From assembly GCA_964016885.1 (NCBI GenBank), contig OZ024745.1, positions 80,166,001 to 80,230,000 on the forward strand: 64,000 bases of DNA, given 5' to 3'. Made by a program: the position numbers and the translations under genes. Shown here piece after piece: positions 18,327 to 52,362 of this stretch. The notes beneath the pieces were generated by a model. It worked only from the letters and a program-made list of their open reading frames with translations, ran no database searches and was not told where the DNA came from. How positions within the stretch are numbered: the first letter of the stretch is position 1; each line of letters starts with the position of its first letter. Origin of the DNA: Eledone cirrhosa (taxonomy: Eukaryota).

Positions 18327-18354
18327 ATTGTATATGCTTTTATATACACCCCTA

Positions 18355-20263: not shown

Positions 20264-20363
20264 GTTGCAAACAATGGAATTTCAATTTCACATGATTTTG
20301 AATCAACTGAAGAATCAACTACTATTGAAGATGTTACAGCTTTCCCAAATACCCCAGCTTCAA
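20264..20363 (+). CDS. IAP coding exon 3 (Ser/Thr linker)
   Basis: AG/GTAAG bounded, 100 nt, phase 0 to 1; homologous exon at 52242-52362. Confidence 0.85.
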
Positions 20364-22196: not shown

Positions 22197-22331
22197 ATAC
22201 TCTACCCAAACCCCAAAATTTTAAACATACACCTTCATCTATGGATACACCTCCAGTTCTGGCTGTTTTATCTATGGGTTATAAACCAAATATAGTCAAA
22301 AGAGTAGTGAAAAATAGAATCAAAGAAACAG
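22197..22331 (+). CDS. IAP coding exon 4 (UBA domain, MGY motif)
   Basis: MDTPPVLAVLSMGYKPNIVKRVV; AG/GT bounded, 135 nt, phase 1 to 1. Confidence 0.9.
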
Positions 22332-22661
22332 GTAAATTTACTTATAGTTTTGTTTTTTAATTATTTTCAATATACAAAATGAAGCTATCCAATATTTGTG
22401 TTTAATTTATTATCATAACCATCAATGTTATAATAATAATAATAATAATAATAATGATAATAATTGTTTCTACTTTAGGCACAAGGTCTGCAACTACCCA
22501 GTGCCTTACTGGTACTTTATTTTATCGACCCCGTAAGGATGAAAGGCAAAGTCAACCTCGGCGGGATTTGAACTCAGATCGTAAAGGGACGTAACTATGC
22601 TGGAAAGCATGGCGTCCGACCCTCTACCGATACTACCAATGATAATAATAATAATAATAAT

Positions 22662-23785
22662 AATGAGATGGAATGTTGCTGAACAAAAAGAAATGGATAG
22701 GAAGACTAGGAAGCTATTGACTATCTACAACATGTTCCACAAGAGGAGTGATGTCGATAGACTCTACCTAAGGAGATCTTATCAAAGAGGTCTTATCAGC
22801 ATAGAGGACTGTGTTCAGATGGAGAAAAACAACCTACACAAATACGTGACTGATAGTAAGGAGCCAATGCTCAGAATTGTACTGAAGGAGAGGACAATAG
22901 ACCAGGGGATGTCCAAGGAGGAAATAACAACAAGGAGAAAGAGCAGCCTTCATGAAAAATCCCTTCATAGTACCTTCTTTGAGAAAACTGAATTCAGAGA
23001 TCCACAGACATGGAACTGGTTGAAAAGAGGAGACCTTAAAAAGGCAACAGAAGGAATGCTAATGGCTGCGCAAGAGCAGGCTCTCAAAACGAAGTGGTTG
23101 AAACACCATATTTACAAGGAGGAGGCTAGCCCATCTGTGGGGAGAGAGAGGAGACTGTGGCTCACATTGTATCCGAGTGTAAACACCTAGCCCAGACTCA
23201 CTATAAGGGCTGGAGACATGATGTGATGGGCAGGGTGATCCACTGGCACCTATGCAAAGTAAACAATTTACCACATTCTGAGAAGTGGTATGAGCATAAG
23301 CCAGAGTCGGTGATAGAAAACGATCAGGTGAAGGTGCTGTGGGATTTTAGGATACAGACGGACAAGACACTAGAACACAATAGACCTGACCTGGTAGTTT
23401 TGGACAAGGAAAAAAGATCGTGCCTGATTGTGGATGTGGCCTGCCCATTCGACACGAGAGTGCAAGAGAAGGAGAAGGAGAAAATTAACCGATACCAGGA
23501 CTTAAAGTGGGAGGTAAAAAGGATTTGGAACTGCCATGAAGTCAAAGTGGTCCCGATTGTCATAGGCACACTAGGTACTATCTCAAAAAGTTTCCAGGGA
23601 TGGTTAAAGAAAATTGGCCCCTTCACGCTTTTTGGAACGCTTCAAAAGGCATGCTTGCTGGGAACAGCAAGAACCCTCCGATACGTCCTGAATATCTGAG
23701 GCTGCAGGTAGTGGCTTGATATTCATTTCAACAAACTTCCCAGTTAACTAACATCAATGACTGAGACTCAAAGAACAATAATAAT
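22662..23785 (+). mobile_element. R4/Dong-clade non-LTR retrotransposon 3' fragment in a (TAA)n context
   Basis: HIVSEC..Y..RHD, LWDF.IQTD..NRPDLVV..IVDVACP, VVPIVIGTLG; flanked by (ATA)n. Confidence 0.8.
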
Positions 23786-23789
23786 GAAA

Positions 23790-26700
23790 TTATTGTGTAC
23801 AGTACTCAGGTGCACTACAACTCATCAAAGGTGCATGTATAGTACATAGAATAATGTACAATTGTCAGGGAAGTGAATAGTGTATGAGTCATGATATACA
23901 TGTGCGCGTGTGTATGGAGGGGGAGTATTAGATGTAGTGTTGGCGAATCTCAGGAAGCATGGAGGTTTTAAAGGATGCAGTGTCTCGACAGCTAACAACT
24001 GATGCAGGGAGTTTGTTCCATGCTTCAGCAACTCTGAGCGTGAAAAAATGTTTCCGAAAGTCACAGAAGCTGTGCTGTTTTCTGACTTTGTTGGCATGCC
24101 CATGTGTGTTAGACACATAGAAATCAAAAAGGTACTCAGGGTTGTTGTTGCCAGACGTCGGAGCTTCAATGTATCCATGCCCAGGGAAGCAAGGCGTTCA
24201 GAGTATGGTAGATGACTGATGGAGGGTATTCGCTTGGTTGCACATCTCTGAACAGCTTCCAAGCGGTCGATGTTCTGAGCAAGATAGGGGTTCCAGACTG
24301 GTGATGCAAATTCTAAGTGTGGCCGCACCATAGCTATATACAGCTTTAAATAGATAGCTGGAGAGCGGCTGACGAAGGTCTTGCTGAGTGATGCTAAGAC
24401 ACCCTCGGCCTTCTTGACAATTTTAGAGACGGGGTTCGTCCAACGCAAATCGCTGCTGACTAATGCCCAGGTCATGTTCACAAGAAGACTTCTTGATATT
24501 AGTGTTGTGGAGGGAGTATGTGGACCCTGGGTTTTACTCCCAAAATGCATGGTGATACACTTGTCCACAGCCAGCTTGAGTTGCCTGTCCATGATCCATT
24601 GTTGCATCGTGCAGTCACCCTTTTTGAATAGAGGAATGACACTGGCAGTTTTTCACTGTTCTGGAGTAGCACCGTTGTTCAGACAGAATTGGAAGAAGCA
24701 TGATGGCTGGTGCAGAAGGAAGTACCCACCACGTTTGAGAGGCAGGTACGTAATACCATCAAGACCAAGAGAGGCATGGTTGCATTTTTTTTTAAGGTGA
24801 CGTCGCAGCATTGCAGGTGTAAATTCCATAGTTGTAATAGAATCTGATGTCAGAGATGGAGAGACGGTACATTCTGGTCTTCAATAATGAAAATGCCTGC
24901 ATAGCATTCGGCAATGAGTTCTGCGCATTTCTTGGGGTCGTCAGTAACCTGGCTTGTGTGGGGATTGTGAAGAGGACCAACTGGAGAGTGAGGCCTCTGC
25001 TTTGAGTGAACATACTTCCAGAACACCTTACTGTCAGGGCTGGCTGCTATGAGGTGCTCAAATTCAAGCACTGCCTTTTTTGTCACCTGCTTGAGATGGT
25101 TGGATGATTTATTTCGCTTTTTCCTATTGATATCTGATTTACGCAGTTTATACTCACATGCAGTACAACCCGACAACCACCTGATCACCTATAGATCAGG
25201 GGAGCACTCTAGTCAGTTAGATTTTATCCTCATCAGAGGACGTGACAGATGGACGGTCGTAAACACAAAAGCCTTCCCTAGTGAGGAATGTACATCCCAA
25301 CATAGCTTAGTTGTCAGCGACCTCACGGTCAGAACTAGACGAGCCCTGAAACAGAGGCCAACCTGGAGAAGAAAGATCTGGAAGCTGAAAGTCCCCTCAA
25401 CCAGTAACAGATTTAAAGATATTTTACTCAACCCCTACGACAGTAAAGAAGAACAGATAGAGACATTTAACGTAGAAGAGAACTGGGAGTTCCTAAAAAA
25501 TAACTTACTAGAGGCGACGGATGAGGTTTGTGGCTGGAGTAAGACCTCAAGCAGGAGGAGAGTGACTTGGTGGTGGAACAATAAGGTAGATGAAGCAGTC
25601 AAGGCCAAGAGACAGGCATGGAAAGAATGGAAGAACGGGGGGAGCAGGGTACATTACATAGAGACCAAGAGGGAAGCTAGGCGACAAGTATACTTAGCTA
25701 GGAGGGAAGCAGAGGATAGAAAATTCAAGCATGTTTTACAACGTGAGGACCAGAAACAGGAGGTATTCAAGATTGCGAGGCAGTGTGTCAGAGATAGTTG
25801 TGATGTCATTGGAGAGAAGTGTATCCGGAATGATAAAGGTGAGCTTGCCCTCACAAGTGCTGAGAAGAAAGATGCATGGAAGAGTCATTATGATAGATTA
25901 CTAAATGAGGAGAATGCATGGGAAGAAGAGACCCTACCCCACGTAGACCCTATAGAGGGACCAGCAGTACAAGTCAGCGGCAGCGTAGTAAGTAAGGCAA
26001 TCAGAGATATGAAGATAGGGAAGGCAACCGGTCCATCGGGTATAGCTGCCGAGATGCTGAAGGCATCTGGGTCTGTAGGTCACACTATAACCACACGTAT
26101 CGTTAACCAGGTAATACTAGAGGGGGCCATACCAAAAGATTGGTGCAGTAGCATCATTGTCAACTGCTACAAAGGTAAAGGCGATGCACTAGATAGAGGA
26201 AACTATAGAGGTATAAAGTTGATGGACCAGGTCATGAAAGTAACAGAAAGAGTTATAGCACAGCTGATTAGGGACCGGGTGAATATAGACGAGATGCAAT
26301 TTGGGTTTGTACCAGGGAAAGGCACCACTGATGCCCTCTTCCTTGTGAGGCAATTACAGGAAAAGTACCTAGCTAAAAGTAAGCCACTCTACTTGGCATT
26401 TGTCGACCTTGAGAAAGCCTTTGACAGAGTTCCACATGCAGTAATCTGGTGGGCTCTTAGAAAACTAGGAGTAGATGAATGGCTTGTGAAAGCGGTACAA
26501 GCCATGTATAGGGGAGCAGTCAGCAAAGTTAGGATTGGCAATGAGTATAGCGAGGAATTTAGCGTACAGGTTGGGGTCCACCAGGGCTCTGTTCTTAGCC
26601 CTCTCCTGTTCATTATAGTCCTGCAGGCAATAACGGAGGAGTTTAAGACCGGATGCCCATGGGAACTCCTGTATGCTGATGACCTCGCACTCATAGCTGA

Positions 26701-28830
26701 ATCTATGGTAGAACTAGAGAATAAATTCCAAACCTGGAAGCAGGGACTAGAGAGAAAGGGCCTCAAAGTCAACATGACAAAGACTAAGGTCCTTATAAGT
26801 AGACGAGAAAACAGAACCCAGATCCCCTCAGGGAAATGGCCTTGCTCAGTATGTAGGAAAGGTGTAGGTAGGAACTCCATTCTCTGCCCCAAATGCAAAC
26901 AATGGGTACACAAGAGATGTAGCGGGATCTCAGGAAGCTTAATTAAGAATGTAGGATTCACATGCAGCAGCTGTGCTGAAACAGCAAGCAAACAGCCACA
27001 GGAAACAAGTACCACCAATCTCTGGGAGGGCCCTGTAGAAACAGTAGACAGCTTCTGCTACCTAGGTGACCGAATTAGCAACGGAGGTGGGTGCTCAGAA
27101 AGTACAATAACTAGGGTAAGAACGGGATGGAAGAAGTTTAGGGAACTACTACCACTGCTAGCTGCAAAAGGCTTCTCCCTCAGAATGAAAGGCAGACTGT
27201 ATGATGCGTGTATCCGAACAGCGATGTTGCATGGTAGTGAGACCTGGGCGCTGAAGGTGGAAGACTTACGTAGATTAGAGAGAAACGAAGCCTGCATGCT
27301 CCGATGGATGTGTAACAGTAATATACGTGAACGACAAAGCATAAAGGAATTGAGAGAGAGACTGAGCATAAGAGGAATCAAATGCTGCGTGCAGGAGAGG
27401 CGGTTACGCTGGTATGGACATGTGATGCGTATGAAGGATGACAGCTGCATAAAAAGGTGCAGAGCACTAGAAGTTGATGGAAACCGCGGAGTGGGGAGAC
27501 CCAAGATGACTTGGGATGAGGTGATAAAAGCCGACCTTACCCAACTACACCTCTCAAAGTCAATGACACACGACCGTGACTTCTGGCGTCACGCAGTAAT
27601 ACAGGGTACCCGACCTCCCATGGGTACATGCTGAAGCATATAAACAATATGCCCCCCACCGCAAGGTGGTCGTGGAGGTGCCACGGCAAAAAAGCACCCA
27701 GCCCACACTGTAAAGTGGACGTGTAGGCGCCACGAAAAAGCACCCAGCACTCACTGTAAATGAGGTTGGTGTTAGGAAGGGCATCCAGCTGTAGAAATCA
27801 AGCCAGATCAGTTCCTGTATGAGCAAGGCATGGTCAGCCGACCAGACACTGCCCACAACAGGACAACCCGTCTAACCCATGCTAGCGTGGAAGAACGGAC
27901 GTAAAACGGTGATGATGATGATGATGATGCAGCATTACAACGTTATTTTCTGGCAAGACGGATGGCTGCAGTCTCCCAAATTGCACTTTTGGGATGTTTT
28001 TTCTGCTTACGTGGTACCGATGCTGCACATGCTGTCCATATTGAGTTCAGGATGTTCTGGAGTACAGTGTTGACATCTCCAGAGTCATAAAACTCAAGCC
28101 AGTTTGGATGTTGCAGTTTGATGCAGCAACAGTTCCAGTCTGCTTTATTCCAGTCAAAGTGAGCAGTTTGGAGATGGTTGTGGTTTTTGTTACTGCCCAT
28201 GAGGGATAGATTGCCAATGATCATAGCATGATCAGAGTCACCTAAAGGTTCCTCAGTAGTAATAACCGTTTCATGAGTAGTGGTGAAGAGCAGATCCAAA
28301 GTGTTGTCACCTCTTGTTGGGGAGGTGACTACTTGGGACCAGTTCGAGTCCAGCACTAGCTCAAGGAAATCATTTGCACTTTGCCGCCAATGAAAAGTTT
28401 CCCAGTCAATCTTAGGGTGATTGAAGTCCCCTGCAATAAAAACATAAGTGGCTGTTTTCCTGGCAGCAGCTCTGAGGATATCACAAAGTTAAGTGTCCTG
28501 TTAGTAATTTGGGGGACAGTAAATGACTCCAAGTAGCAGTGTTGACATGGTCATACGTATATCGCAGAAAAATACCTCTTGCTGGTTCAAATCAACACAA
28601 GAAATTGCTGAAAAATTTGACCGAACGTAGACCATTACACCACCACATGCAGTCTTTACGAAACAAGTTGTAGCCAGTTATGCTGAAAACCCCATCACAG
28701 AGTAAGGAATGTGTCCATGTTTCTGTGACTGTAATGAATTCAGGGTCGATACTTTTGATGTAGGAGTCAAGAAGATGTATCTTATTGCATAGACTACGTG
28801 CATTCAAGGACAACAATTTGTACCTTGATT
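23790..28830 (-). mobile_element. CR1-clade LINE, degenerate, split by the RTE insertion at 25164-27926
   Basis: Endonuclease LNARSL..VTETW and PTRGDNTLDL..SDH; C-terminal VRPHLEFASPVWNP and FFTLRVAEAWNKLP. Confidence 0.85.
25164..27926 (+). mobile_element. RTE family B, 5'-truncated, open RT frame, ATGCAG TSD
   Basis: Frame open to the stop at 27634; ATGCAG at 25158-25163 and 27927-27932; (GAT)n tail. Confidence 0.95.
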
Positions 28831-29739
28831 CCAGTCTATGATTATGTGCAGGAGATGGCAGGTTGTTCTGATTTAGTTTCCCAGAGTTTTTTCAGTTTTT
28901 TTATTGTCAGATGTTTTAACATATTTCATGACAACTTTTTTAATGAAATACATTGCCGAGCTGTTTACATTAATTTTGAAAATAAGTTTAAAAAATTGAA
29001 AGCTTTTAGTTTGCACTTTTATCAAATTTACTGTTTTAAATGTTTACACACACACACAAACATCCATCTCAACATCTCACACATTTCCTTGTTTTTGGTA
29101 CATCTCAAAATTCTTTTTCAGTTTCAGCTTCCTCTCTTCAATCTTTTAATAGCTCACTGTTCTATTTTTGCAGTTTTTACAGTTATTAAATTTATTGTTT
29201 TAAATGTTTACAAACACACGATATTCATCTCATCATCTTACTTACAAACACAGATTTCATTTCTCTGTTTTAGCTCACTCTCAACCGCCTATTCCCTTAT
29301 GGTCCATACATCCCTTTTACATGCCCATTAATTGGTAGATTTAACAGTTAAAAAAAAAGATTTCATCATTTAGACTTAAATCTAAATTATTTTAAGGTCA
29401 TGTGCCAAGTGACCAGGATACCTGCATGGTTAAATGATTTCGTAACATCCTATTAGCCTTCACCCTCCTGTTCCCCGCCACCCCCATCACATTCCAGGCA
29501 ATTAACTTGTGTCCCCTATCTCTTCCCTCCCTCCATTATCTTCAGATTCAGTCAAAATTAGCCCTGTTTATCCCCCTATTCAACCCACTACTCCCATAGC
29601 AGCTAGCTTGCCTCCAATGCCACCTAGCCCCAACTGAGTCCCACTGCCAGAGTTAATGCTGTTCACCCAGTTCTTCCCTCTACCTCTATCATTAACCTAC
29701 CCTCACTATCTTCTCCTCCCCATCTGAATCCTAATTCTA

Positions 29740-31070
29740 ATGCCAACCCCTCTGGTGCTGACAATTCACCACCAAACTGTGCTCTTTGCACCCATACAAG
29801 TCAATATTTGAAGACCATCAAATGTCACTCATCTAGCCTAAGCTATAACAGGAGCTGTGTTGGCATTACTCAGGGTCAAGCTGAAAGTTTCTCAAACTGG
29901 ACGTGTAACCAATGCCACTTCAGTTCCAACTTACTTCGCAGGTCAGAACCTAGCTTTGACATTTAGATCCCTGGAGAGGATTTTGCTGCTGCCCTCCGGG
30001 ACTTGTCTATGTTCAAACTCATGAACAGAATCTCAAAGGGAGCTTGGACCTGTTTCGTCCATGCTCTCTTCAAACTGCTGAAAATGTCTGCTTGTCCAAC
30101 ATCTCGGATTGGCAGAAACTATTCTTGTTCTCTCTAGTCTCTCCACATATCCAACGCAAAATCTGGATTCCTCACATTTTCCCTAAAACGGCAGGTTTAG
30201 CAGTTTGATTCCACCCCAACTACGGCTTATCTCAGTTCTGATCAATGGATGATCACCAAACTTAAAGAAGACCATCAATGCCAAATTCAACGAATTTGAT
30301 ATTAAAAGGGCTGTTCGCCTCCTTACCTCTCTGTCCTCCCTCACCCAGTGCACAACTGATTTACTCAATCGACTGAGGGAGAAACATCTTCATGCCTCTC
30401 CAGATGACCACCTATACTGGCTCAATCCACCAGGTTATTTACCGCCTATCTTCGCATCAGAAAGGCAATTATATCCTTTACTGCGGTTTCTGGTACAGGG
30501 ATTGATAGTCTACAGCCTCAGCACCATAAGGATGGTATCTTTTTGTCTACTGAAGATACTGGCCTTGAGCTCTTCGAGAACCTCACCCAGTTCATTAACT
30601 TGTTCTTGTCAGAGAGTATCCTCACTTATATTTGCCCCCTCTTCTTTGGGGTTAAACTGTTTGGCCTCACAAAACCCAATGGTGACCTTCACCCCATAGA
30701 GTTGGGTGCACACTGTGACAGCTCTCTGCAAAATTATGTCTATCCTTCATTTCAGACTGCCTGTCTGCTGAATGTTTCCTTATTCAGCTAGGAGTGAGTG
30801 CCAAGCTGGATTATGAGGCTGCCACCAGAGCATTTACCAACTTTCCTTCTAAGACCCCTAAGGTTATCCTCAAACTAGATCTTAGGAATATTTTCAATTC
30901 CATCAGTCAGGATGTCATCATTTGTTCAGTAAAAGAGAGAACCCCTCAGCTTTACCACTTTGCTTGGCAAGCCTATCGGGAGCCCTCCTACCTCTCTTTC
31001 AGAGACCATTTCATCCTATCTGCCTCAGGCGTCCAACAGAGGACCTGTTCTTCACATTGGGTATTGATGA
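29740..31070 (+). mobile_element. Highly degenerate CRE-like element
   Basis: FFGVKLFGLTKPNGDLHPI, ILKLDLRNIFNSI and SASGVQQ remnants. Confidence 0.65.
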
Positions 31071-31675
31071 TGTCACCACCAATGATGGCCTTGGGACCCC
31101 CTGCTGGTCATTTAACCTTGTTCTGGTGACGCAGCTTGATGGAGCATGCAACTACTGATATACTCATGTTTATAGGCTCTGAGGATTCCTGCCATGGTGC
31201 ATGGATGAAACACTGTTAGCTAATAAAATAATGTATTTCTAAGCACCCTTTGGTTATTCCTATAACTATAACGGCTCTGTAGTACTAGTTATCCTACATT
31301 GAGCTAAAACCACACTGTCACACCAAGGGCAATATATCTACATGTCTGGGCATATTGATATATTTGTCAACGAAATATATATATATAATCATCATTTCAT
31401 TTTACGTCCGCTTTTCCCTGCTTGCAAGGGTGGGACGGGAACTGATTCTGGCTTGATTTCTACAGCTGGATGCCCTTCCTAACACCAACCTCATTTACAG
31501 TGAGTGCTGGGTGCTTTTTTGCCGTGGCACCTCCACGACCACTTTCCAGTGGAATGATAGGGACCCCAGTCCCTATCATCTCATTTCTACAGCTGAGTAT
31601 ACAAGCGTATACAAGATTTTAATTATTCGAATATTTTACAAAGCCTGATGTATATTTTTTTTTGTTTTTTTTAAG

Positions 31676-31813
31676 GTGCTTCTTTTTCAAAAGCATCCCA
31701 GTTACTAGAAGCAATCCATGAATGCTCTGATTTTGATGATGATGTTGAAGATGTAAGCAATGAAGAGGAGCAAGCCCAAACAACAATAAAAGCTGGTGCT
31801 GGACAGATAGCTA
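31676..31813 (+). CDS. IAP coding exon 5 (end of UBA plus acidic linker)
   Basis: GASFSKASQLLEAI...; AG/GTAAGT bounded, 138 nt, phase 1 to 1. Confidence 0.9.
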
Positions 31814-32087
31814 GTAAGTAAATAAGTGATTATTCCTCTATTTCTTTATATATAGTAAGTAAATCAGTGATTATTATTATATTTTCATGGTAAAGGCCTT
31901 ACCTCACATAATTATCTTTCATAATATCAAATATATGAGATTTTGAAAGTATTTATTTTGAGAACAATACCTTAACATCAGTTTGAGTGACCGGTTTGAA
32001 GAGAAAGAGGTAGAGAATTCTGGTCAGTTTGAACATTAAAGGGTTAAACGTATATGGAAATGGAAGGAGCCCTCAGCCTGTAACAAA

Positions 32088-32613
32088 TTTCTTAGGTGTC
32101 GTCAGCAGTCAAGGTGATGTCATGCCACCTCACTTCTTCCCTGAGGACCTCAAGGTGAACACTGATAGCTACATCCGTGTTCTGAGCGAGGTAGTAAAGC
32201 CCTGGATCGACCAGGTAGCTGCAGGTAGGCTGTACGTGTGGCAGCAAGACTCAGCGCTCTGCCATACCAGCCGAAAGACCCACTTTCCCTGACATCTGGC
32301 CTCCCAGCTCGCCTGACTGCAACCCTCTCGACTTCTTTGTGTGGGGCGCAGTGGAACGAGACACCAACAGATCTAGCTGCAATACGAAAGATGATCTGAA
32401 GGCCAGGATCACAAGTGCCTTTAGGGGTCTAAGTCGGGGGACAGTGACGAAGGCCTTGTAGCCGGTTCCGAGGCCGCCTTGAAGCCATCATCAAAGCCAA
32501 TGGCGGGTATATCGAGTGAGATCGAAAGAACAAGTCATGAAGACAAACTGACCCAAGTTTGATAAATAAATCTTAAAAAATAAGTAATCTTGCGAACAGA
32601 TATCGTCCGCACC

Positions 32614-32616
<3 letters not shown>
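32088..32616 (+). mobile_element. Tc1/mariner (maT-like) transposase 3' fragment with right TIR
   Basis: VWQQDSA..H and WPPSSPDCNPLDFFVWG; ends CACCCTG|TA. Confidence 0.85.
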
Positions 32617-32649
<33 letters not shown>

Positions 32650-33123
32650 AATTTCGTTTTTAAAATATAAAAACTGGAAAGAAGTAGGTGGAGGAGTTAA
32701 AACAGCTCAAAATACGGTAATTTATTATAATAAACAGTACATAAGCCTATGTATCATACTTCAAGCATGTGTACAAAATCCTACTGTGTTAAAAAAAATT
32801 ACGTGTGGAGCAAATTATTCATTAAAGTATTACCAAATACAGTTTCACATTAAATATTAATTTACAATTTTTTCATCATTTTATGAACAAATACCTAAAC
32901 ATATTGATCTCAGCACACACACTAAGAGGCCACAAAGCTTTGTTTACATTAATTAAGCAGTAATACTAGCTAACTGCAGTCATGATGTACTATCAGACCA
33001 AATCTAATTATCTACGATGAACTAAAAGATAGTTATCAAATAAATAACAAAAGAAAATATAAAAACTTATATATATAGAGAGAGAAAAATATAAATATAT
33101 ATATGTGCGTGTGTACATATATC

Positions 33124-36032
33124 TCCTTATAATATATAACCAGCAATTTCTCTGTCTGTCTGTCCGACAGTGGAAACACGTGCGCGCGTGGTTGCTATCT
33201 CTCTCTCTCTCCAGCTATCCCTCTCTTTTAGTCTGTCTGTTTCTCTCACTCTCACTCTTTCTCTTTGTAACACACTAACATTCCTCCCGTCTATCGCTGT
33301 GACGAATGGGGAGATGGAGGAGGAGGAGGAGAGAGGCACTTCGTCACTTCACCTCTGCCTTTCTTTCTCTCCCCTCTCACTCCCTCATTACGTACAGACA
33401 TTAGGGCGGTGGATTGGCAGAATCTGTAGAGAGTCGGACACCATGCTTCATAGCATGGAGTTACGTCCCTTTACGGTCTGAGTTCAAATACCGCCGAGGT
33501 TAACTTTGCCTTTCATCCTCACGGGGTCGATAAAATAAAGTACCAGTAATGTACTGGATAATTGCTGGCCTTGTGCCAAAAGTAGAAACAATTATTAGAA
33601 ACATTGCTTCATTTTTACATATCTAAGCATTAGTAAAATAACTAATAATTTCAAAAGTAATTTTTCAATTCCAATTGTTATGAACAGCAAAACATTAATA
33701 ATAATTTTGTTCTAAGAAATATATATACATTTCTGTGTGTGTAATATATATATATATACACACACAGAAATATATATACATTTCTGTGTGTGTAATATAT
33801 ATATATACACAGAAATATATATACATTTCTGTGTGTGTAGTATATATATATACACACACAGAAATATATATACATTTCTGTGTGTGTAATATATATATAT
33901 ATATACTAGCAGAAAACCACCCGGTGGGCGGTTTTCTGCTAGCAAATCTAGTGTATATACTGATATTGTTGAGATTTGGATGAGAAATGTTTTTGGCACC
34001 ACATGTTCACCGTCTCTCGGTGTGTCTTTTATGCATGTATAAATATATATGTTATCTATGCGGTGAAATCTTTGAAATAAATATATGTTAAAACGAAAAA
34101 GGAGAAAAAGAGATTAGTGACGGAAATATAAACGTTATGATACATAAACGTTATGATATAACGATGGAAATATATCTTCAAATGGTCCTTGGCATGGTGT
34201 CAAGTCAGAACCGCCTCAAACTGGTTACTTCTGGCTTGTGCAAGGTGTCTCTATAGCAACCAGCGATTCCCTCGGCCTCAGTGACCAAAGTCAGTGGAGA
34301 GGGGAAGGTAATGTTTCGATAGCGACAGTGTTTCTCTTGGTAGTACCAAAGTGGAGAAAGGAAGGGGAAGGTAATATTTCTGTAGCACCTACATTTGAGT
34401 TTTAGGGAAGGACAGACAGACAGACAAACAGAGAAATGCCTATATATTTCTGTGTGTGTATATATATATATATATTACACACACAGAAATGTATATATAT
34501 TTCTGTGTGTATATATATATATATATATATTACACACACAGAAATGTATATATATTTCTGTATGTATATATATATATTTCTGTGTGTGTATATATATATA
34601 TATATTACATACACAGAAATGTATATATATTTCTTAGAACAAAATTATTATTAATGTTTTGCTGTTCATAACAATTGGAATTGAAAAATTACTTTTGAAA
34701 TTATTAGTTATTTTACTAATGCTTAGATATGTAAAAATGAAGCAATGTTTCTAATAATTGTTTCTACTTTTGGCACAAGGCCAGCAATTATCCAGTACAT
34801 TACTGGTACTTTATTTTATCGACCCCGTGAGGATGAAAGGCAAAGTTAACCTCGGCGGTATTTGAACTCAGACCGTAAAGGGACGGAACTCCATGCTATG
34901 AAGCATGGTGTCCGACTCTCTACAGATTCTGCCAATCCACCGCCCTAATGTCTGTACGTAATGAGGGAGTGAGAGGGGAGAGAAAGAAAGGCAGAGGGGA
35001 AGTGACGAAGTGACTCTCTCCTCCTCCTCCATCTCCCCATTCGTCACAGCGATAGAGGGGAGGAATGTTAGTGTTTTACAAAGAGAAAGAGTGAGAGAAA
35101 CAGACAGATTAAAAGAGAGGGATAGCTGGAGAGAGAGAGAGAGATAGCAACCACGCGCGCACGTGTTTCCACTGTCGGACAGACAGACAGAGAAATTGCT
35201 GGTTATATATTATAAGGATATATATATACACACACAGAAATATATATACATTTCTGTGTGTGTAATATATATATACACACACAGAAATATATGGGCATTT
35301 CTCTGTTTGTCTGTCTGTCTGTCTGTCCTTCCCTAAAACTCAAATGTAGGTGCTACAGAAATATTACCTTCCCCTTCCTTTCTCCACTTTGGTACTACCA
35401 AGAGAAACACTGTCGCTATAGAAACATTACCTTCCCCTCTCCACTGACTTTGGTCACTAAGGCCGAGGGAATCGCTGGTTGCTATAGAGACACCTTGCAC
35501 AAGTCAGAAGTAACCAGTTCGAGGCGCTTCTCACTTGACACCATGCCAAGTCTACTTATAATATATAATGGGCATTTCTCTGTTTGTTTGTCTGTCTCTC
35601 TGTCTGTAAAAAATGCCAAGGAAACAAATAGACCCGGTTTCAAATCTCTATGCTTTTCAAATTCATTACATTAATCTTTATTTATATGTTTCGCTTTACG
35701 AGTGTTTCGGCTTATCATTATATATAAACGTTTCTATTTCCATCGTTTTATCATAAACGTTTATATATTTCCATCGTTATATCATACCGTTTATGTATCA
35801 TAACGTTTATATTTCCGTCACTAATCTCTTTTTCTCCTTTTTCGTTTTAACATATATTTATTTCAAAGATTTCACCGTATAGATAACATATATATTTATA
35901 CATGCATAAAAGACACACCGAGAGACGGTGAACATGTGGTGCCGAAAACATTTCTCATCCAAATCTCAACAATATCAGTATATACACTAGATTTACTAGC
36001 AGAAAACCGCCCACCGGGTGGTTTTCTGCTAG
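33124..36032 (+). mobile_element. Non-autonomous Helitron containing an inverted copy of itself (33906-35218)
   Basis: 5' TC ends; 3' hairpin CTAGCAGAAAACC..GGTTTTCTGCTAG at 33906 (-) and 36032 (+); 34441-35218 is the reverse complement of 33124-33905. Confidence 0.75.
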
Positions 36033-37811
36033 TCTATATATATAAAACTGAGGATGTCTGTCTGTGTGTGTGTGTGTGTGAGTTTGAATCCCTAAAACTC
36101 GAGAAGCACCCAACCGACTGTTTTCAAACTTTTCACATGCAATACTTATGTTTCAGGGAGTGTTCTGAGCAAAATAAATTTCAAATTTTCAATGCCCTAG
36201 GGACCGCATTAGGCGATTTAGCGATCTCTCTCTATAATTCTTAGTCTTTCTCTTTTTAGATAGATACATATATATATAACGTCGCGCCCTTATAATATCT
36301 GTCTGCATTACATCACTTCCCACAATTCTATCTGCATCCAGAACGCGCCCTTATAATATCTGTCTGTATGTATGGCTGTCTGCTGCCACCCATGCTCAAG
36401 ATAAATCTCACACTCATTCCCCAAACAGTTGGTAAGTGCACACAATTTCTTCCTCGCGTTTTAAGCCACAGTGTTGCTTACTTATGTACCACCAGACCCT
36501 TACTTCTTTGCCAGCCATGGTTGTGGCAATACTAAGCTTAGCTAAGGCGGTTATATATTTCGCACAACACTAAATACGATTTCCCTCGGCTTCAGGTGAC
36601 TACCTTCAGAGATGGACCTTCCGCTTCGCACTCAGCCTGTCAATGTATGGCTGTTAAACGGACTGCGAATGCATTCTGATTCATTCTAAAAGCTACCAGT
36701 GGAAGCAACCATAACACCCTCCTTCAAATATCAGAGATTGCAGTCAAAGTCACTATTAAGGGCTGCAAGTGAACGCTCACATGGCCCTTTTTAGGACCAT
36801 CACTTGAAATTGTTGATGATTACCCTCCTTACTGAGGTGTCAGTGAATGGCTTACACAACCCTTTTAAGGGCCCTTGAAATAGCTGATGGCGACCCTTTC
36901 GTTTAGGGCTGCCAGTGAACGCGCACACACCTCAGGGCCCATTTTATTGCACCATTCCTCTTTAAATTTGTTAAATTATACCCAGTTTGGTAAACGTTTG
37001 TCCAGTTGCGTTTACTTACTAAGGTGCGGTAGACTCCTTCGAGAAGGCTCCACATGCTGTCCGATTGCACGTCATGCCTTGCTCAAGCATTGCAGACTTC
37101 CCTCTGACATAAGTGGTGACATCTGTTCTGCTGACTCATGCCACTTTATTAAAGTACAAAAGCACCAAGCCGATTTTCTCCATGTCGAAGGAGAAGCATG
37201 CCTAATACTAATTGCATCAGAATATTCGGTTTATTTTCTTTACATATTGTCCAGACATGCAGTTTTCCCACAATTAGGTCTGTTGGCGGCCCGTGTTATG
37301 CACATAAAAAATTCAACTTTTTGATCCCCTAGGGCCCGCATTAGGTGAAAAACTGCTTTTTTTTCAGCTTTTTATGGGTATTTTGAGCCGTTACGTCAGA
37401 CCGATTTCCTTGAAATTGTAACTATGTATTAGTCAGTCTATTCTTCATACCATGAGCAAAGAAAATCCAACTTTTTTATGGCCTAGGGCCTGCATTAGGT
37501 GAAAAACTTCATTTTTTCAGCTTTTTAGGGCTTTTTTTAGGCTTTACGTCTAGCCGATTTTCCTGAAATTTCAAGGCATATTATGCACATAAAAAAAATT
37601 TATTTTCTTGATGGCCTAGGGCCCGCATTAGGTGAAATCCTGCATTTTTCCTGCTTCATCGAGGAAAATCTTAAAGATTATCCAGCCATCAGAGTATTCG
37701 GTTTATTTTCTTTACATATTGTCGAGGCATGAAATTTTTCCACGATTAGGTCTGTTGGCGGCCCGCGTTCCAAAATACCTTATCCCGTGCAACGCCGGGT
37801 ACCACTGCTAG
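36033..37811 (+). mobile_element. Second Helitron family joined head-to-tail to the first
   Basis: Starts TCTATATATATAAAA; ends CCCGTGCAACGCCGGG..CTAG|T; internal CCTAGGGCCCGCATTAGG repeats. Confidence 0.75.
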
Positions 37812-38369
37812 TATATATATAAAGTCCAAATAAGGACGAAACAATTGTAAATCAATATTTAGTGTGAAACTGTATTTGGTAATACTTTAATGAATAATTT
37901 GTGTGTATATATATATATATATATATCATTTGTGACGCACGTTTCACTATTGATCAGTTCAAGGTTCGACCTATATTGATCTGGCCCAACTCTGTAATCA
38001 AAAGCTCATCAGATATTTAGAATATATTTCTCTGTATGTTACATTTTATATTTCAACAATGGGTTGGCAGTATCAGTAGAGTGTCAGGCAACATGTTTTG
38101 CAGCATTTAGTTATGGCCCTTTATGTTCTGAGTTCAAATGTTGCCTTTTATCTTTATGGGGTCGATAAAATAAAGTACCAGTAATGCACTGGGGTCGATT
38201 TAATCAACTTTCCCTTCCCCCAAATTGCTGGTCTTGTGGCTATAGTAGAAATCATTGTATTTCACCAATACATTAATTCTTGATCATATTCATTCTTGAT
38301 TTTCTTCTCATTACTTTACATTCTATTATTCAAACCATAAACGTCTTTCTTTTATTTTGTTTTTTTCAG

Positions 38370-38566
38370 AATTTGATATTGCACTCACTAAAGAAAATAA
38401 TATGCTGAAAGAACTAAAGCTTTGTAAAATCTGTTTAGATGAAGAATTGAGTGTGGTGTTTTTACCATGTGGCCATTTGGTCACATGTGCATCATGTGCG
38501 TCTGCTCTCACAAACTGTCCTTTGTGTCGAAAAAAAATTCAAGGACTGGTTAAGGTGTATTTCTGA
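38370..38566 (+). CDS. IAP coding exon 6 (C3HC4 RING, stop). Spliced CDS 1830 nt, 609 aa, BIRC2/3/7-like
   Basis: CKIC..VFLPCGHLVTCASC..CPLCR..VKVYF*. The six exons join in frame. Confidence 0.95.
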
Positions 38567-44864: not shown

Positions 44865-45061
44865 TCAGAAATATGCCTTAACACGATTAAGAACCTTTTT
44901 CTGACACACAGGACAGTTACTGAAATCAGGAGAACATAATGCACAACTGACAAAATGGCCACATGGTAAAAACACATCACCCAATTCTTCTTCTAAACAG
45001 ATTTTACAAAGTTTGTATTGTTTCAGCTTATTATTTTCTTTAACTAGATCAGCATATGATA
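44865..45061 (-). CDS. IAP paralog RING exon (197 nt)
   Basis: SYADLVKENNKLKQYKLCKICLEEELGDVFLPCGHFVSCALCSPDFSNCPVCQKKVLNRVKAYF*; intact acceptor; same length as 38370-38566. Confidence 0.9.
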
Positions 45062-47039
45062 CTGAAAAAATAAAAATAAAACAAAGACATTTACAGTTTG
45101 AATATCAGAAACATGATAATAGAATGTAAAGTAATGAGAAGAAAATCAATGAATATGATCAAGAATTAAAGTAATATAATAATTGTTTCTACATTTGGCA
45201 CAAGACCAGCAATTACCCAGTGCATTACTGGTACTTTATTTTATCGACCCCGTAAGGATGAAAGGCAAAGTTAACCTCAGCGGGATTTGAACTTAGACCG
45301 TAAAGGGACGTAATTATGCTGGAAAGCATGGCGTCCGACCCTCTACTGATACTGCCAATCCACCGCCCTAAAGTGATATAATAATAATGATAATAATGAA
45401 TTTATTGTGTAAAGTGGTTAGGTGCACTACAAAAATATATAAAGAAACATTTTTTTAATTAACACTTTAGTTTAAATTAACCCATTATTATTATTAAATG
45501 TGGGTTAAAAACAACATCAACAATTATGTAAGAAAAAATAGTATTCTCAATACTGAAAAGGGAAATATGGAGTACATCTAATATAGTTATAACTACTCTA
45601 ACCCTTTAACATTTAAACCGGCTGTATCCAGCCAGAATTCTCTCACCTCTTTCTTTTCAAACTGGTCATAACCAGTTGCTTATACTGATGTTAAGGTATT
45701 GTTCTCAAAATAAATAATATCAAAATCTTATAGATTTGATATGATGTGGGATAATTATATGAGGTAAAACCTTTACCATGAAAATACAATAGTAAATATA
45801 AAGTAATGTAAATGCTAAAGCCATTTTCTTTCTTAGTTTCTGGCTAGTGAATTTAGTGAAAAGTACAGCAGATATTTATTTTTAAACTAAAGATCATATT
45901 AGAAATTAATTTTATTCATATAAATTAAATAACATTACAAATTGTTTATAATTCTTACAGAATGAAAATATAAACACATAATAAATACAATTAATTATTG
46001 CTGGGAACCTTACAAATATAATACACAAAAATATATGATCAAAGTGAGATAAAAAAACAAACAAAAACAACCATCACTTCACCACCAAGTGCAACAATCA
46101 GCCACAGACCACAAAGGTAAGCCAACACATTCGCAGCTTCACTGCAGCTGATGGTGAGGCTAAGATGCTGAAACAACCAGGCACCCCACAGACATCACCT
46201 GACACCTTGGTAAGGCAAGTTGCTAACAATGACAAGAACTTTGCTGTCACTGGCCCAGCTCTACCAAACGTATCTAATCGTTTTTTTATAGTTCCCAGTA
46301 ATTTAGGATTATTCCATTCGGCAATGGAAGCAGTGACCCTCATATTTACAGCAACATCCATGATGTGGGAGGGAGCAAAAGACTCACTGACTGTGGCATC
46401 CCAGATGAGACATCTGCCTCATACCCAGGGACAAAGGGTAGACCATCTTATCTATTCCAATCAATTCTGGATAATCCACATAGCTCCAGAACTGAGGGGA
46501 TATTTACTTGAGCTAGGGCCCACTTAATGATCAGGTTTAGCTTTGTGAGGCAGGTGAAGCAACCAGCATTCGGGCAGCAACACAACCATAGAGGCCTGCG
46601 GTACCGAGGGGCCCTACCACAGTGACATCTCAGACAACAGCTCCCGCTCAGAAGCAATGGAGATGCGGTGTATGCACAGATTAAGAAGTTCACCAATGTT
46701 GGTCTCAGGCAGGGCATCAATCCAGTCGCCCAAGAAGAGATAGTGACAAGTATTTACACAGACCGAGACCTCCCAACTGTTTGGGAGAAGGTAGCCCAGT
46801 CGCGGGACTCTGGAGGGTATCTGACATTGACCATGGTATAGACAGTGGAAGTTTTCATGGATGCTTCCTTGCCTTGGAATCAATAACTATCTAATATCCG
46901 TGTAAAACAAGAGAAGGATCATTTTGTAGCAGCTACTTCACTGTCAGTACTTTTATAGATAGTAAAGGAATCATTTAATATTTACTAACAATCATTTCAA
47001 TATATAAAGAAATAGAGGAATAATCACTTATTTACTTAC

Positions 47040-47177
47040 TAGCTGTCATTTCAGAGCCAACTTTTATTGTTGTTTGGGCAGGCTCCTCTTCATCGCTTAC
47101 ATCTTCAATATCATCATCAAAATCAGGGCATTTATGGATTGCTTCTAGTAACTGGGATGCTTTTGAAAAAGATTTAC
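47040..47177 (-). CDS. IAP paralog exon homologous to 31676-31813
   Basis: GKSFSKASQLLEAIHKCPDFDDDIEDVSDEEEPAQTTIKVGSEMTA; AG/GTAAGT bounded; 138 nt. Confidence 0.9.
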
Positions 47178-47584
47178 CTGAAAAAAAACAAAAAAAAATA
47201 TACATCAGGCTTTGTAAAATATTTGAATAATTAAAATCTTGTATACGCTTAAATCCTATTTACCCACTGTTTTCATAATTCTATATTGCTTTGTTAGGTT
47301 TCTATCTGTACTTCAAATATAGAAATTTGATGGCTTATAACTAATAAAATTTTGTTGGAGGAAAGCACAAGTCCTGTTCATTATTTACAGGGCGGTGGAT
47401 TGGCAGTATCGGTAGAGGGCCGGACGCCATGCTTTGACGCATAGAGTTACGTCCCTTGCCATTCTGAGTTCAAATCCCGCCAAGGTTAACTTTGCCTTTC
47501 ATCCTTACGGGGATCGATAAAATAAAGTACCAGTAATGCACTGGGTAATTGCTGGCCTTGTGCCTAAAGTAGAAACAATTATTT

Positions 47585-48430
47585 ACATGAACAGTATCGA
47601 CATGCACAGCCAGGTTGGAAGTGGTATCATGACTGGCGGGTGTAAAATCAGACAATTGGAATTTGCAGACGACATGATGTTACTTAACTCGGCAGAAGGT
47701 GATCTCCAACTTGCACACGACAGATTTGATGCCGAGTGCTGCATGGCTGGAATGAAAATCAGTGCTGCAAAACCTGAGATGCTCATCCTCTCAAGGAAGC
47801 CTGCACAGTGAACTCTACATTTAAATGGAGTTCCACTGAAACAGGTAGAGAAGTTCAAGTATCTTGGGGCTGTGTTCATGAGTGATGGAAGGCAAGAGGC
47901 TGAATTAAGTGCAAGAATTGCAGGAGCTGGTGCAGTAATGTGCAGCTTCAGCATTCAGTTATCAGAAAAAAGGAGGTGGGTGTAAAAGCCAAACTCACTA
48001 TCTTCAATTCAGTATTCGTGCTAACCCTTACCTATGGTCATGAATCTTGAGTAATGACCGAAAGAATACAAGTGACCGAAATGAGGTTCCTCCAAAGGGT
48101 CTTTGGAGGAACGTTACTTAATAGAGTGTGTAGCTTGGAGATCAGAGAGTCACTCCTGGTAGAGCCACTACTTCTCCAAATTGAGAGATCACAGCTCCAA
48201 TACTATGGGCATGTGGTTGGAATGTCTCAGGAAAGAATTGCTGGACAGATTTTACAAGCAAAACCAACCGGCATGGAGACCCAGAGCAAGATAGTTAGAT
48301 AACATCCATGAGCTTGGCTGGTCTCACTTGGAGATCCAGTCGGATCTGTTGGAGATGGTTGCTTCTGGACCAGCTGGAAGGAGTATTTGAGGACTCTGCC
48401 CCTACAACCCTCTCAGGAATAAGTGGGCCA
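47585..48430 (+). mobile_element. Old RTE-like LINE fragment (second lineage, no PHD insert); related pieces at 11793-11975, 40480-41020 and 48860-50760
   Basis: LEFADDMMLL, GMKISAAK, VEKFKYLG, LTYGHES. Confidence 0.8.
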
Positions 48431-50926
48431 AGAAGAAGAAAGTATTTATTAAAGCATAAAGTATTTATTAAAGCTTATCAGCCTCATTTTATAATTTCAG
48501 TTTGAATCAGAAATATTAATGTATAAACCAAATAATAAAAAACCCTAGTGGTAGCAGTGCATTTTGTTTTTGACAATATCATTGCCTTCTAATCTATTTG
48601 ACCCTACAGTTGGTATATTTTTACAGATTAGTTCTGAAAATTTGACCCTACAGTTGGTACATTTTTACATAATAGTTCTGAAACTTCATTAACAAAGGAG
48701 TTACTAAACAGTTATATTCACTCTTCCTTGAAAAACTTGCTAAAAGAAGACCAATTAATCAGAAATTCATGTTTAACTTAATGGATATGATGATGAATTA
48801 CTCAAGCTTTTGTAGAAAGACTTCATAAATACATTAGTGCAACAAAAAGCTCTCCATTAATCCCATGTTCCTACAGAACCTTCCCCAACAAGTCTCATGG
48901 GATGTGATTGGATGCATTTTTGAGGTTAACAAAACAAGCATACACCTCTTGGCAATACTCCCACGGTTCTTTCAAAGACTTGCCAAAGTGTGAATATTTG
49001 GTTGGCTGTACTTCGTCAGGGGCAAAATCAATGCTTGGACTCAACAATATCCCTATATATCTCTTTGCTAGACACTTAGCATACACTTTACCAGGGATGC
49101 TTCCAAGGAGATCCCCTTATAATTGGAGTAATTTCTTCTGTCTCCTTTTTTGAAAATTGGGATTATCATTCCTGATTGCCATTGCTTAAGTGCTTTTCCA
49201 GAGATCCAGGCCACCCAACACACATGATTCAGCCAGAGAATATCTTCTCTATTTAAGGTTTTTAACATCTCGGACCAAACTTGATTCTCCCCAGAGGCCT
49301 TGCCACATCTGAGCTCTTTAATTGTTTTAGTGACTTCAGCCTCCGTGAGGTCAGTCATCGCTCGAAGATGCACCTCAAGTACATCAGATGTGACTGGATT
49401 TAGGAAATCAGTAAAGTAGTCTCTCCACCTCATGAGGATACACCTCTGTAAAGAGAAGAGAACTCCAGATGAGTTCCTGATAATAGGTTTGGAGGGGAAC
49501 TTCTTATTAAGAAGTTGGCAGATGGTCTGCCAGAACACTTTATTTGCCGATCTGAAAAGTCAATTCCAGCTTAACCCCAAAGTCTTCCCATATCTTAAAT
49601 GTGGACACCTTTAGTATCTCTGCTAGGACTTTTTGTGCCTGCTTGTACTGCAAGTGCAAAAAGGAAAACATTTTTCCAAGCTAAGCTTTGTAAGCTCCCT
49701 TCTTGACTTGGATGGCATCTTTAACCACCTCATTGAACCAATGGGTCTTCCTGCCACCTGGCACCACACCAAGCCACTTCTGCCCACAGCATTTAACAAC
49801 TAAAGCAGAAACTGCTGAGCTGAACAGTTTCCACTCCATTTCAACATCCTCAGTTTGTTCAGGGTGTTCTCTGAATTTGGATGCTATAGTATCTATATAC
49901 ATGTTCCTAACTTCCTTATCAGCCAGTGCTTGCCAGTTTTTTGTGTTTTCTTAGCTTTATGTAATCTTAGGTTGCAGATAACTAGGTGATCAGTTGACAG
50001 CTCAGCCTCTCTCTTAACACGAACAGCCAACATAATCAAAGAGATGAGAGACAATAAGAAAATCAATTATTGATCTCTGATTTCTGTTCAGACAAATGGT
50101 GCTAAGTAGCACTACTACTTCTCCTATTCATAAACTTCATGGACTAGATAATGCACAGCCATGTTAGAAGTGAGATCAAGACTGATGGATGTAGGATCAT
50201 TCTGCTGGAATTTGTAGCTGATATAGTACTACTTAACTCATCAGAAGGTTATCTCCAACATGCACTTGATAGGTTTGCTGCTGAGTGCTGTATGACAGGA
50301 ATGAAAATCAGTGCTGTGAAGACTGAGACACTTGTCTTCTCAAGGAAGACTGCATATTACACTCTACGTGTGAGTGAAGTTTCACTGAAGCAAAGGAGTA
50401 GTAAAAGTATTTCGGGGTCATTTTCACGGGTGATGGAAAGCTGGAGGCTGAATTATGTGCAAGACTTGCAGAAGCTGGTGCAGTAATGTGCCAGGTTCAG
50501 CATTCAATCATCAAAAGAAAGGAGCCAAACTCACTATCTTTAATCAGGTATTCGTGCCAACACTTACCTATGGTCATGAATCTTGGGTAATGGGGTTCCT
50601 CCAATGGGTCTTTGGAGTAAAATTACTTGATAGAGTGGGTAGCTCAGAGATCAGAGAGTTGCATATTTAACAGCTATTTCTCCAAATTGAGAGATCACAG
50701 CTCTGATACTATGGACGTGTGGTCGAAATATCTGAGGAGAGAATCATTGGACAGATTCATAAAATGTGATGGTGGTGATGATAGTGGTGGTGGTGGTGAT
50801 GATAGTGGTGGTGGTGGTGATGATGGTAGTGATTGTGCTGATGATGATGAATTAAACACAAATATCGGATAGCTTCATTTTGTATATTGAAAATAATTAA
50901 GAAAACAAAACAATAAGTAGGTTTAC

Positions 50927-51061
50927 CTGTTTCTTTGATTTTATTTTTCACTACTCTTTTGACTACATTTCGTTTATAACCCATAGATAAAACAGCCAGA
51001 ACTGGAGGTGTATCCATACAGGAATATTTATTTTTAAGATTTTGAGATTTGGGAAGAATAC
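50927..51061 (-). CDS. IAP paralog UBA exon
   Basis: MDTPPVLAVLSMGYKRNVVKRVVKNKIKET; AG/GT bounded; 135 nt. Confidence 0.9.
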
Positions 51062-52241
51062 CTAAAATTAAAAAAAATCATAGGTTGAAGCTGTAATGTT
51101 TACGCTTTCTGTAAATGTCTTAGCAGTAGGAAATAGTTACCCAACCATGACAAATGGAAGGATGCTGTGTTGGAAAAGACCTGTTCAACTGTTACAAGCA
51201 TAAAATAATGATGATGATGATGATGATAATCTTATGGCATGGATTGGGCGAGAGGTCATGGGCTGTCATAATTTTATGGCATGTATTGGAGGGGTTGTCA
51301 CAGGCTGTCATAATTTTATAGCATGGATTGGACAGGTTGTCATGGACTGAATCTTGATGGTTTGCAGGTCAATAAAGAATTATACTGATAAAATTTTGAG
51401 CTCAATGTAAACCACCAAAATAAAACACATCTTAACACTAGTATAACGCCATGCAGTATTGCAACTCATACGCAAACATCATACAGCATCATCTTCACTC
51501 CAAGAGAAAAACCGCGTGTTGCCAACAGGGGTAACAGCTTCCAGAACATTATTCATTATTTTTTTTGTCAGATTACTATACTTTTGGTAAACCCACCTCC
51601 ACTACTAATTGGTTCACCTAGGTAAAGGAAGCTATCAACTAATTCTAGTGCACCATCTGAGCATTTGAGGGAATTTACTTCACATATGTTCTTACTGCTA
51701 ACTACTCATGTGCATCTGTCATATACAAGGTCTACCTTTTCTGTCAATCAGCCTGCCTATAATCCGTCTTGTGTTACATTGGGTACACCCATTTAGGAAG
51801 GCTGCAATGTTTATAGACATCATTCCTTCTCCAATGACAATTTATTAAAATGTATCTACTGAGTTTGGGCTATTTCTAAACTTTCTATATTCTATCCTTC
51901 ACTAATAAATCTAAATTGTCAACAGCACACTTCATAAACTATTGGCAGAATTCAAGACTCGTCTTCATTTTGATATGTAAAGAATTCTGTAGAATATTAC
52001 AGCAATAATATGAACATATTGATGAACAATATGAGTTATAAATAGTAAATAACCTGCACCCTGAGACTACCTCAAGTCAAGAAACTCCACAAAACTGTCA
52101 TGTACAAGTCAACCTACATGATAAAGTGATCTCTCTTGAGGATCCAGCAAAGGAGATGGTTGCTTCTGATAGGACCCTCAGGAAGGCAAGGAAGAGAAGG
52201 AAAAGATGATGATGTTAACAGAATTTTATGTGTTTTCTTAC

Positions 52242-52362
52242 CTGATGTTGAAGAATTTGGTAAAGTTGTAACATCTTCAGGGGTAATTAATTCTGCCATA
52301 GTAGTTGATCCTTCAGTTGACTCAGCAGAACCATCTAGAACTGAACTAGCATTATCTAATAC
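52242..52362 (-). CDS. IAP paralog linker exon (121 nt, in-frame ATG at 52299)
   Basis: VLDNASSVLDGSAESTEGSTTMAELITPEDVTTLPNSSTS; AG/GTAAG bounded; homologous to 20264-20363. Confidence 0.8.

Follow-up and report, generated by a model that had tools for sequence, protein, structure and literature searches.

Can the 3′ half of an IAP gene, separated from the exons that encode its BIR domains, become a gene in its own right? The question is raised by a minus-strand locus in a 64,000-nucleotide stretch of the Eledone cirrhosa genome (assembly GCA_964016885.1, contig OZ024745.1, positions 80,166,001 to 80,230,000; C5:80166001-80230000), referred to here as the window. The window holds a plus-strand full-length IAP gene (A) and, at 44865-52362, a minus-strand UBA-RING copy (B). 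Two other copies enter the comparison, C, a paralog on the unplaced 199-kb contig C1714, and B_U, a hybrid copy upstream of the window. Genome-wide searches were run over the 3.0-Gb assembly; the best candidates alone were scored, and the copy counts given below are lower bounds. We propose, tentatively and with somewhat less than even confidence, that B is a young 5′-truncated IAP duplicate that would encode a weak ligase, an MDMX-like UBA-RING dimer partner tuning full-length IAPs.

The four exons of B (121, 135, 138 and 197 nt) keep frame, phase and GT-AG sites without a stop codon, as a preliminary description of this DNA had recognised. All four carry an AG acceptor and the three internal ones a GT donor, and joined together they form one open frame of 196 codons. 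Their counterparts in A measure 100, 135, 138 and 197 nt (20264-20363, 22197-22331, 31676-31813 and 38370-38566 on the plus strand). The flanking introns are homologous as well, since the two pairs of intron segments singled out earlier align in 70 of 72 and 88 of 111 columns. Because these pairs are homologous, B arose by genomic duplication, as had been suggested, and an origin as a retrocopy is ruled out. None of the lesions that define a pseudogene (stop, frameshift, loss of a splice site) is found in B, whose frame is open and whose splice sites are in use. The coordinates of these and related features are given in Table 1.

Table 1. Features of copy B and related loci; positions without a contig name are those of the window.
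Feature	Position	Strand	Evidence and remarks
Gained non-coding first exon of B, 212 nt as covered by contig	56938-56727	-	X4 contig, 0 mismatches; GT-AG joint to 52362
Truncation point of B	52913-52363	-	Homology to C intron 2 stops at 52660, then inverted 160-nt piece of the same intron at 52913-52752
Linker exon, 121 nt	52362-52242	-	AG acceptor, GT donor, open frame
UBA exon, 135 nt, MGY loop, second in-frame ATG at 51017	51061-50927	-	Pfam PF21290, E 2.6e-6; spliced joint 52242->51061
Helical exon, 138 nt: UBA third helix (LL motif) and acidic spacer	47177-47040	-	Gene model; spliced joint 47040->45061
RING exon, 197 nt, C3HC4 intact	45061-44865	-	Pfam PF13920, E 3.5e-12
3′ untranslated region (UTR) to contig limit; 3′ end undefined	44864-44684	-	X4 contig
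Full-length IAP A, 609 amino acids, six coding exons; lies convergent to B and is its candidate partner	9852..38566	+	Gene model, Pfam BIR
Paralog C, conserved octopod IAP ortholog	C1714:53288-68101 (L026-L027)		RING identical to Octopus and Argonauta proteins
Hybrid B_U: C-like 5′ half (BIR, linker, UBA start) with B's helical and RING exons	C5:80114332-80130553 (L008-L010)	-	

The preliminary description had taken B for a duplicate of the IAP in the window. B is a genomic duplicate of an IAP, but its closest relative is C on C1714 and not A: over the four exons, B and C differ at 48 nucleotides in 186 codons, compared to 104 in 189 codons for B and A. The helical exons of B and C show 4 differences in 138 nt, and the introns of B are collinear with those of C, differing at 87 of 1319 sites (6.6%). 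In a tree of the protein ahead of the RING, support of 100/99 extends only to the wider clade that unites B with the octopod IAPs of the cIAP/XIAP/DIAP2 type. The branching order of A, B and C is left open by the trees, so the closeness of B to C rests on pairwise identity and common introns. In a RING tree, B has the longest branch of the 12 rows (0.63). The closest protein matches come from Octopus and Argonauta, with 86% to O. bimaculoides P0001. We also observe that A and B of the window are both diverged derivatives, the conserved octopod ortholog being C.

The homology between B and C ends 300 nt upstream of the linker exon, and beyond the inverted piece only repeats match. This arrangement fits either a duplication truncated at its 5′ end or a loss of the BIR exons in a later rearrangement. 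In a run from a second organism there is a gapless 208-nt piece with 12 differences from B (94% identical), which crosses the point of a deletion particular to B's own intron; over the same 208 nt, compared without gaps, A matches at 130 positions and C at 97. Because this piece matches at B's deletion point, the B lineage probably predates the split from the second organism.

Transcription of B is indicated by contigs from run X4, which we take to be RNA on account of its GT-AG joints (the library type is absent from its record). Among the runs listed with a match, none is recorded as RNA, which counts neither for nor against transcription. These contigs contain three listed joints, 56727->52362, 52242->51061 and 47040->45061, all of them GT-AG and on predicted exon edges. 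One contig of 406 nt runs from 56938-56727 through the linker exon into the beginning of the UBA exon, its listed pieces having 0 mismatches; another of 502 nt spans 47163-47040 and 45061-44684 (helical exon, RING exon and a further 181 nt of 3′ UTR), also with 0 mismatches. The two presumably derive from one mRNA. The assembly showed no second DNA copy of these exons in joined form. Since the 3′ exons of B_U and B do not differ, part of the 3′ contig may stem from B_U. The X4 contigs end (transcript base 406; window 47163) exactly where B and A share 31-mers, and these ends do not fit the cut points expected from sharing with C (408, 47090). Since the ends coincide with 31-mers common to A and B, A would appear to be transcribed in the same sample as B, with C absent or minor there.

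The first exon of this transcript is a gain of B. It contains a decayed piece of a short interspersed element (SINE; ~56891-56818), which agrees with a young copy in 56 of 74 columns, and apart from this core it is unique genome-wide among the 40 best of 800 candidates. An ancestral IAP 5′ UTR exon was considered and ruled out, as the exon has no homology in the 264 kb around the window or in the first 80 kb of C1714. A scan of 56300-57700 against Rfam gave one chance-level match alone. The contig begins at 56938, just after a CAG; this position may mark an acceptor instead of a transcription start. Within intron 1 of B, 200 nt from the first-exon donor, lies what we take to be a YY1-like motif (56511-56520), and a second such motif, presumably also YY1-like, lies at window-equivalent 67634. 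The exon holds three short upstream ATGs and ends in a TAG that is in frame with the linker exon; therefore, nothing upstream is fused in frame by this splice path, and the mRNA is BIR-less.

Are there BIR exons elsewhere that could belong to B? The preliminary description had found no BIR-coding sequence between 52363 and the assembly gap at 61423. Our search agreed and extended the interval without a BIR-exon match, from 52363 to 70 kb beyond the window end. A genome-wide BIR-family search returned 25 matches among 50 candidates. Sixteen of the 25 are accounted for by A and its upstream twin together with B_U and C, and the nearest other match on B's strand is 1.74 Mb off and corresponds to a different exon. 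The assembly contains at least five copies of the UBA exon, at least four of BIR exon 2 and at least four close copies of BIR exon 1. This count of five UBA exons against four BIR sets indicates that B has no BIR exons of its own.

An assembly or annotation artefact would make B the 3′ half of an ordinary IAP, with its BIR exons lost in the gap or carried on another contig. The gap at 61423, whose true size is not given by the assembly, leaves room for such exons; BIR exons do accompany the near-copy of these 3′ exons found upstream, and the conserved paralog C lies on an unplaced contig. This explanation is nevertheless largely refuted and very improbable, given the exon counts and an unbroken spliced contig that runs from a non-BIR exon into the linker exon with an in-frame stop ahead. 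The linker exon of the window is only 87% identical to that of the upstream copy, contigs from sample S1 match the intron and first exon particular to B with 0-1 differences, and C1714 has no unique overlap with the gap flanks. The BIR-less gene postulated earlier is thus borne out by spliced contigs in which the linker exon follows a first exon that encodes no BIR. The definition of the IAP/BIRC family, as worded in an excerpt of PMC3972657, requires at least one BIR domain. B has none and so is not an IAP by definition, but its exon structure, introns and sequence establish descent from an IAP gene. It is a UBA-RING gene derived from an IAP.

The first in-frame ATG after the TAG lies at 52299-52297, in the context ACTATGG, and opens a predicted protein of 175 amino acids. 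It owes its existence to an 18-nt insertion (52297-52280) that converts ATT to the start ATG at 52299; the insertion is absent from A, from C and from the proteins of O. bimaculoides, O. vulgaris, O. sinensis and Argonauta. Among the first six ATGs, this one alone has a purine at -3 plus a G at +4. Initiation at the second in-frame ATG would give a 141-residue product with the UBA and RING whole.

Both domains retain their characteristic residues. The MGY and LL motifs of the UBA are the same as in the conserved orthologs, in line with the MGF/Y loop and LL/V motifs attributed to IAP UBA domains in an excerpt of PMC3240630, and the domain scores 27.8 bits against PF21290 (cut-off 27.2). All eight zinc ligands of the C3HC4 RING are present. 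The predicted RING structure has a local confidence (predicted local distance difference test, pLDDT) of 93.9, although only one of the five models exceeded 70, and a template modelling (TM) score of 0.88 to the cIAP1 RING (6hpr); its fold matches cIAP1, cIAP2, XIAP and BIRC7. One alteration concerns the linchpin arginine (Arg606 of cIAP1), present in all 16 other aligned RINGs and replaced by glutamine in B (CGA to CAG at 44903-44901). The tail of B reads K-A-Y-F, with Lys at the position of cIAP1 Arg614 and Tyr at that of Phe616, and has the same end as the tails of A and C. Equivalents of cIAP1 Val573, His588 and Ile604 are retained. According to the excerpted text of PMC6349121, Arg606 of cIAP1 acts in cis, and Arg614 and Phe616 act in trans from the other protomer. 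The Arg-to-Gln change in RNF38 lowers E2-Ub binding 11.6-fold (Table 1 in the part of PMC12326332 at hand), and homo- and heterodimers of IAP RINGs set stability (PMC3972657, excerpt).

These features suggest how B could act. The truncated duplicate has lost its BIR exons and is spliced from a new first exon, and the ATG made by the insertion would start a 175-residue UBA-RING protein, whose glutamine linchpin would lower its intrinsic E3 (ubiquitin ligase) activity. To judge from the residues, its RING may dimerise with the RINGs of full-length IAPs (A, C) and would then most likely lend its aromatic tail in trans to the E2~Ub of the partner. BIRs help keep the cIAP1 RING monomeric, which is echoed by the title of entry 3t6p. 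With no BIR to hold the RING of B shut, auto-ubiquitination of the full-length IAP would most likely be favoured, and its level would go down. Regulation through RING heterodimers, as raised in the preliminary description, is plausible in sequence terms. A stronger version makes B a dedicated regulator, a separate gene of an octopod lineage that has lost its BIRs, has acquired a repeat-bearing first exon and a start codon, and whose selection-driven pseudo-ligase RING controls paralog abundance, an MDMX-like arrangement made de novo in the apoptosis pathway; this we regard as doubtful.

The same residues bear on a different possibility, that B encodes a functional protein apart from IAPs, either a homodimeric UBA-RING ligase or a ubiquitin-chain reader, with its RING reshaped for another E2 or partner. 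The unchanged MGY and LL motifs would suit such a role, and some of the changes in B hit the pre-RING helix and the C-terminal strand, where they could weaken pairing with A and C. XIAP is moreover a working ligase with Tyr485 as its linchpin (excerpt of PMC12326332), so that a residue other than arginine is compatible with activity. However, B has no substrate-binding domain besides the UBA, and the Val corresponding to V582 of cIAP1, the core Phe and the aromatic residue of the tail are all retained, which persistence of the ancestral mode of dimerisation would predict. RING heterodimers are also known among IAPs, according to the portion of PMC3972657 cited above. We consider such independence unlikely.

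Is B maintained by selection, as the preliminary description had inferred? The claim holds in part. The RING of B carries 19 changes in 63 residues, with six codons altered at 2-3 positions, and the eight zinc ligands and the frame survive these changes; in a neutral simulation with 20-30 substitutions, an open frame and 8 ligands were kept in 1.3-6% of runs. Fifteen of 16 invariant RING sites, defined from an alignment built without B, are kept in B, an outcome (at least 15 of 16) that the neutral simulation gives in 0.6-4.6% of runs. Relative to C, 9 of 267 sites are changed in the UBA and helical exons, compared to 87 of 1319 in introns (Fisher p 0.048). In the RING exon, the corresponding figure is 26 of 195 sites (p 0.002), twice the intron rate. 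Over 61 RING positions, C, three Octopus species and Argonauta show no differences, compared to 18 in B and 12 in A. A constrained fold with a fast-changing surface is the simplest reading of this uneven pattern. What speaks against selection is the ratio of nonsynonymous to synonymous rates (dN/dS) between B and C, which is 1.0-1.5 by counting (1.1 as a single value) and 0.69-0.75 by maximum likelihood (p 0.5-0.7), with no region that differs from 1.

Besides this ratio, several observations weigh against a functional, IAP-tuning B. Survival of the whole open reading frame by chance would not be rare, at about 15% (~0.25 x 0.6). Synonymous divergence in the RING exon is raised (~6 of 40 sites when averaged over paths, with only 2 clean single synonymous changes), and a local rise in mutation rate there is possible; the conservation of the UBA may come from gene conversion, since a recombination point lies in the UBA exon. 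A Val in a RING strand has become Asp (44978-44976), a residue found in none of the 16 aligned relatives, and this could be damage. XIAP, as mentioned above, is also a working ligase with a linchpin other than arginine. Five short upstream ATG frames, one of which overlaps the start, may suppress translation, and the 175-residue product is known from sequence alone. Expression rests on the single run X4, whose listed joints do not include the one from the UBA exon to the helical exon. Finally, the 65 short matches (of 141 candidates) include no named cephalopod ortholog.

Several of these points would also be expected under the main rival account, a transcribed but non-functional duplicate that drifts with relaxed constraint behind a cryptic repeat-associated promoter and has so far escaped a stop. 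A dN/dS indistinguishable from 1, the missing linchpin, the unusual Asp, five upstream ATGs and a frame with a ~15% chance of survival all accord with decay, as does an unstable locus with a 48-kb repeat and a hybrid copy that carries a stop (described below). We nevertheless judge this account rather unlikely. Decay does not readily explain why 8 ligands and 15 of 16 invariant sites were kept despite ~30 substitutions, or why the changes cluster in the RING, where their rate is double that of the introns; splicing is exact, the new start lies in a good context, and the 94% gapless match in the second organism indicates that the lineage is not very recent. The reading of B as a truncated duplicate that may tune full-length IAPs is therefore kept as the tentative one. 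If the protein is not made, the locus represents ordinary birth and decay in a tandem cluster.

The surroundings of B are themselves duplicated. Window 2451-51074 recurs ~96 kb upstream at C5:80072614-80120535 (L004-L009) as a 48-kb repeat of 99.6-99.9% identity, the mismatches numbering 46 over 35 kb and 4 over 7 kb. The upstream repeat includes another intact A gene, whose product differs at 2 amino acids, and one repeat junction lies at a (TA)n run near window 2451. In B_U, the join between the C-like and B-like parts lies within the UBA exon, and 14.4 kb of the 5′ half is 99.5% identical to C1714. Codon 10 of B_U reads TAA in the assembly; this stop lies at the border of a T-run and an A-run and may be real or an assembly error. 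Short junction homologies argue for a real rearrangement; a haplotype or assembly origin is also possible. Contig depth is ~2x on the duplicated part, which, without a baseline, fits a true duplication or two haplotypes.

A is a mosaic. Its BIR exons and their flanks (9852-10929, 18568-18749) are ~98% identical to C, compared to 81% for the linker and ~83% for the RING, which suggests gene conversion of the BIR part of A. A processed-looking fragment at C3:206009184-206009486 (L031) combines 81 nt of A intron 5 (window 32636-32716) with a damaged copy of the RING exon. The 81-nt piece stops exactly at the GT donor 32717; the fragment preserves a cryptic exon that had been spliced to the RING exon of A, seemingly out of frame. 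Directly past the gap, a 317-bp tandem repeat of near-identical units occupies window 61623-64869 (into L014), with a perfect inversion point near 62824; the repeat is absent from C1714. Reverse-transcriptase frames, which we take to be of the long interspersed element (LINE) type from their motifs, lie at 25010-27634, 15241-17810, 12025-13873 and 27943-28891. One reverse-transcriptase frame of 874 amino acids has 99% copies elsewhere on C5 and on C1714, and this suggests recent activity of a LINE-type element.

The locus displays the steps of a gene's birth in its sequence: a truncation point, a first exon, a start codon and a RING altered at its linchpin. It also offers a small protein pair for asking whether a separate gene encodes RING-RING cross-regulation of IAPs. 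Several short mollusc models (O. bimaculoides LOC106872101; models such as P0072, P0074 and P0101 from bivalves or snails) are likewise IAP-like with no BIR match on record; they are automatic and may be partial, and LOC106872101 is UBA-only, without a RING, and belongs to another paralog lineage. The sole named cephalopod among the 65 short homologs (141 candidates) is a UBA-only model. In O. bimaculoides we also observe an annotated gene (P0064, P0129, P0130) that repeats the start of its UBA and lacks both BIR and RING; it lies on a sequence equal in length to the one with the IAP cluster. Truncated IAP derivatives thus seem to recur in octopods and molluscs. The literature we searched describes no separate BIR-less UBA-RING IAP paralog in a mollusc, as far as the available parts of the surveys PMC8917759 and PMC13159474 go, whose supplements could list some. 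The oyster/mollusc survey pruned proteins without a BIR, according to the excerpt of PMC8917759. Because IAP inventories are built on the BIR domain, BIR-less derivatives go uncounted, and such genes may form a hidden class in molluscs.

Compared to IAPs of the cIAP/XIAP/DIAP2 type (the octopod group of XP_014774540.1, P0001), B is alike in its linker, UBA, spacer and RING exons and differs in the absence of BIR domains, the new first exon and start, the glutamine linchpin and the long RING branch. Two further known systems resemble it in particular respects. The BIR-less NAIP isoform arises from Alu promoters in partly deleted human copies (excerpt of PMC2685007), likewise in a copy-variable region and with a SINE-associated start. 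That isoform keeps its NBD-LRR part, and both protein and promoter have been demonstrated in the same excerpt; B, in contrast, keeps the UBA-RING part and has the SINE inside its first exon. In the MDM2-MDMX pair, MDMX likewise has a RING paralogous to that of its partner, weakened on its E2 side, and a retained aromatic tail that can act in trans (PMC7190642, in the part available). Homology between MDMX and B is limited to the RING class. MDMX retains its substrate-binding domain and its partnership is proven, whereas B has lost its substrate domains and the likeness would be one of residues and of apparent co-expression with A. The nearest precedent for the origin of B is the BIR-less NAIP isoform, and for its proposed mechanism MDMX.

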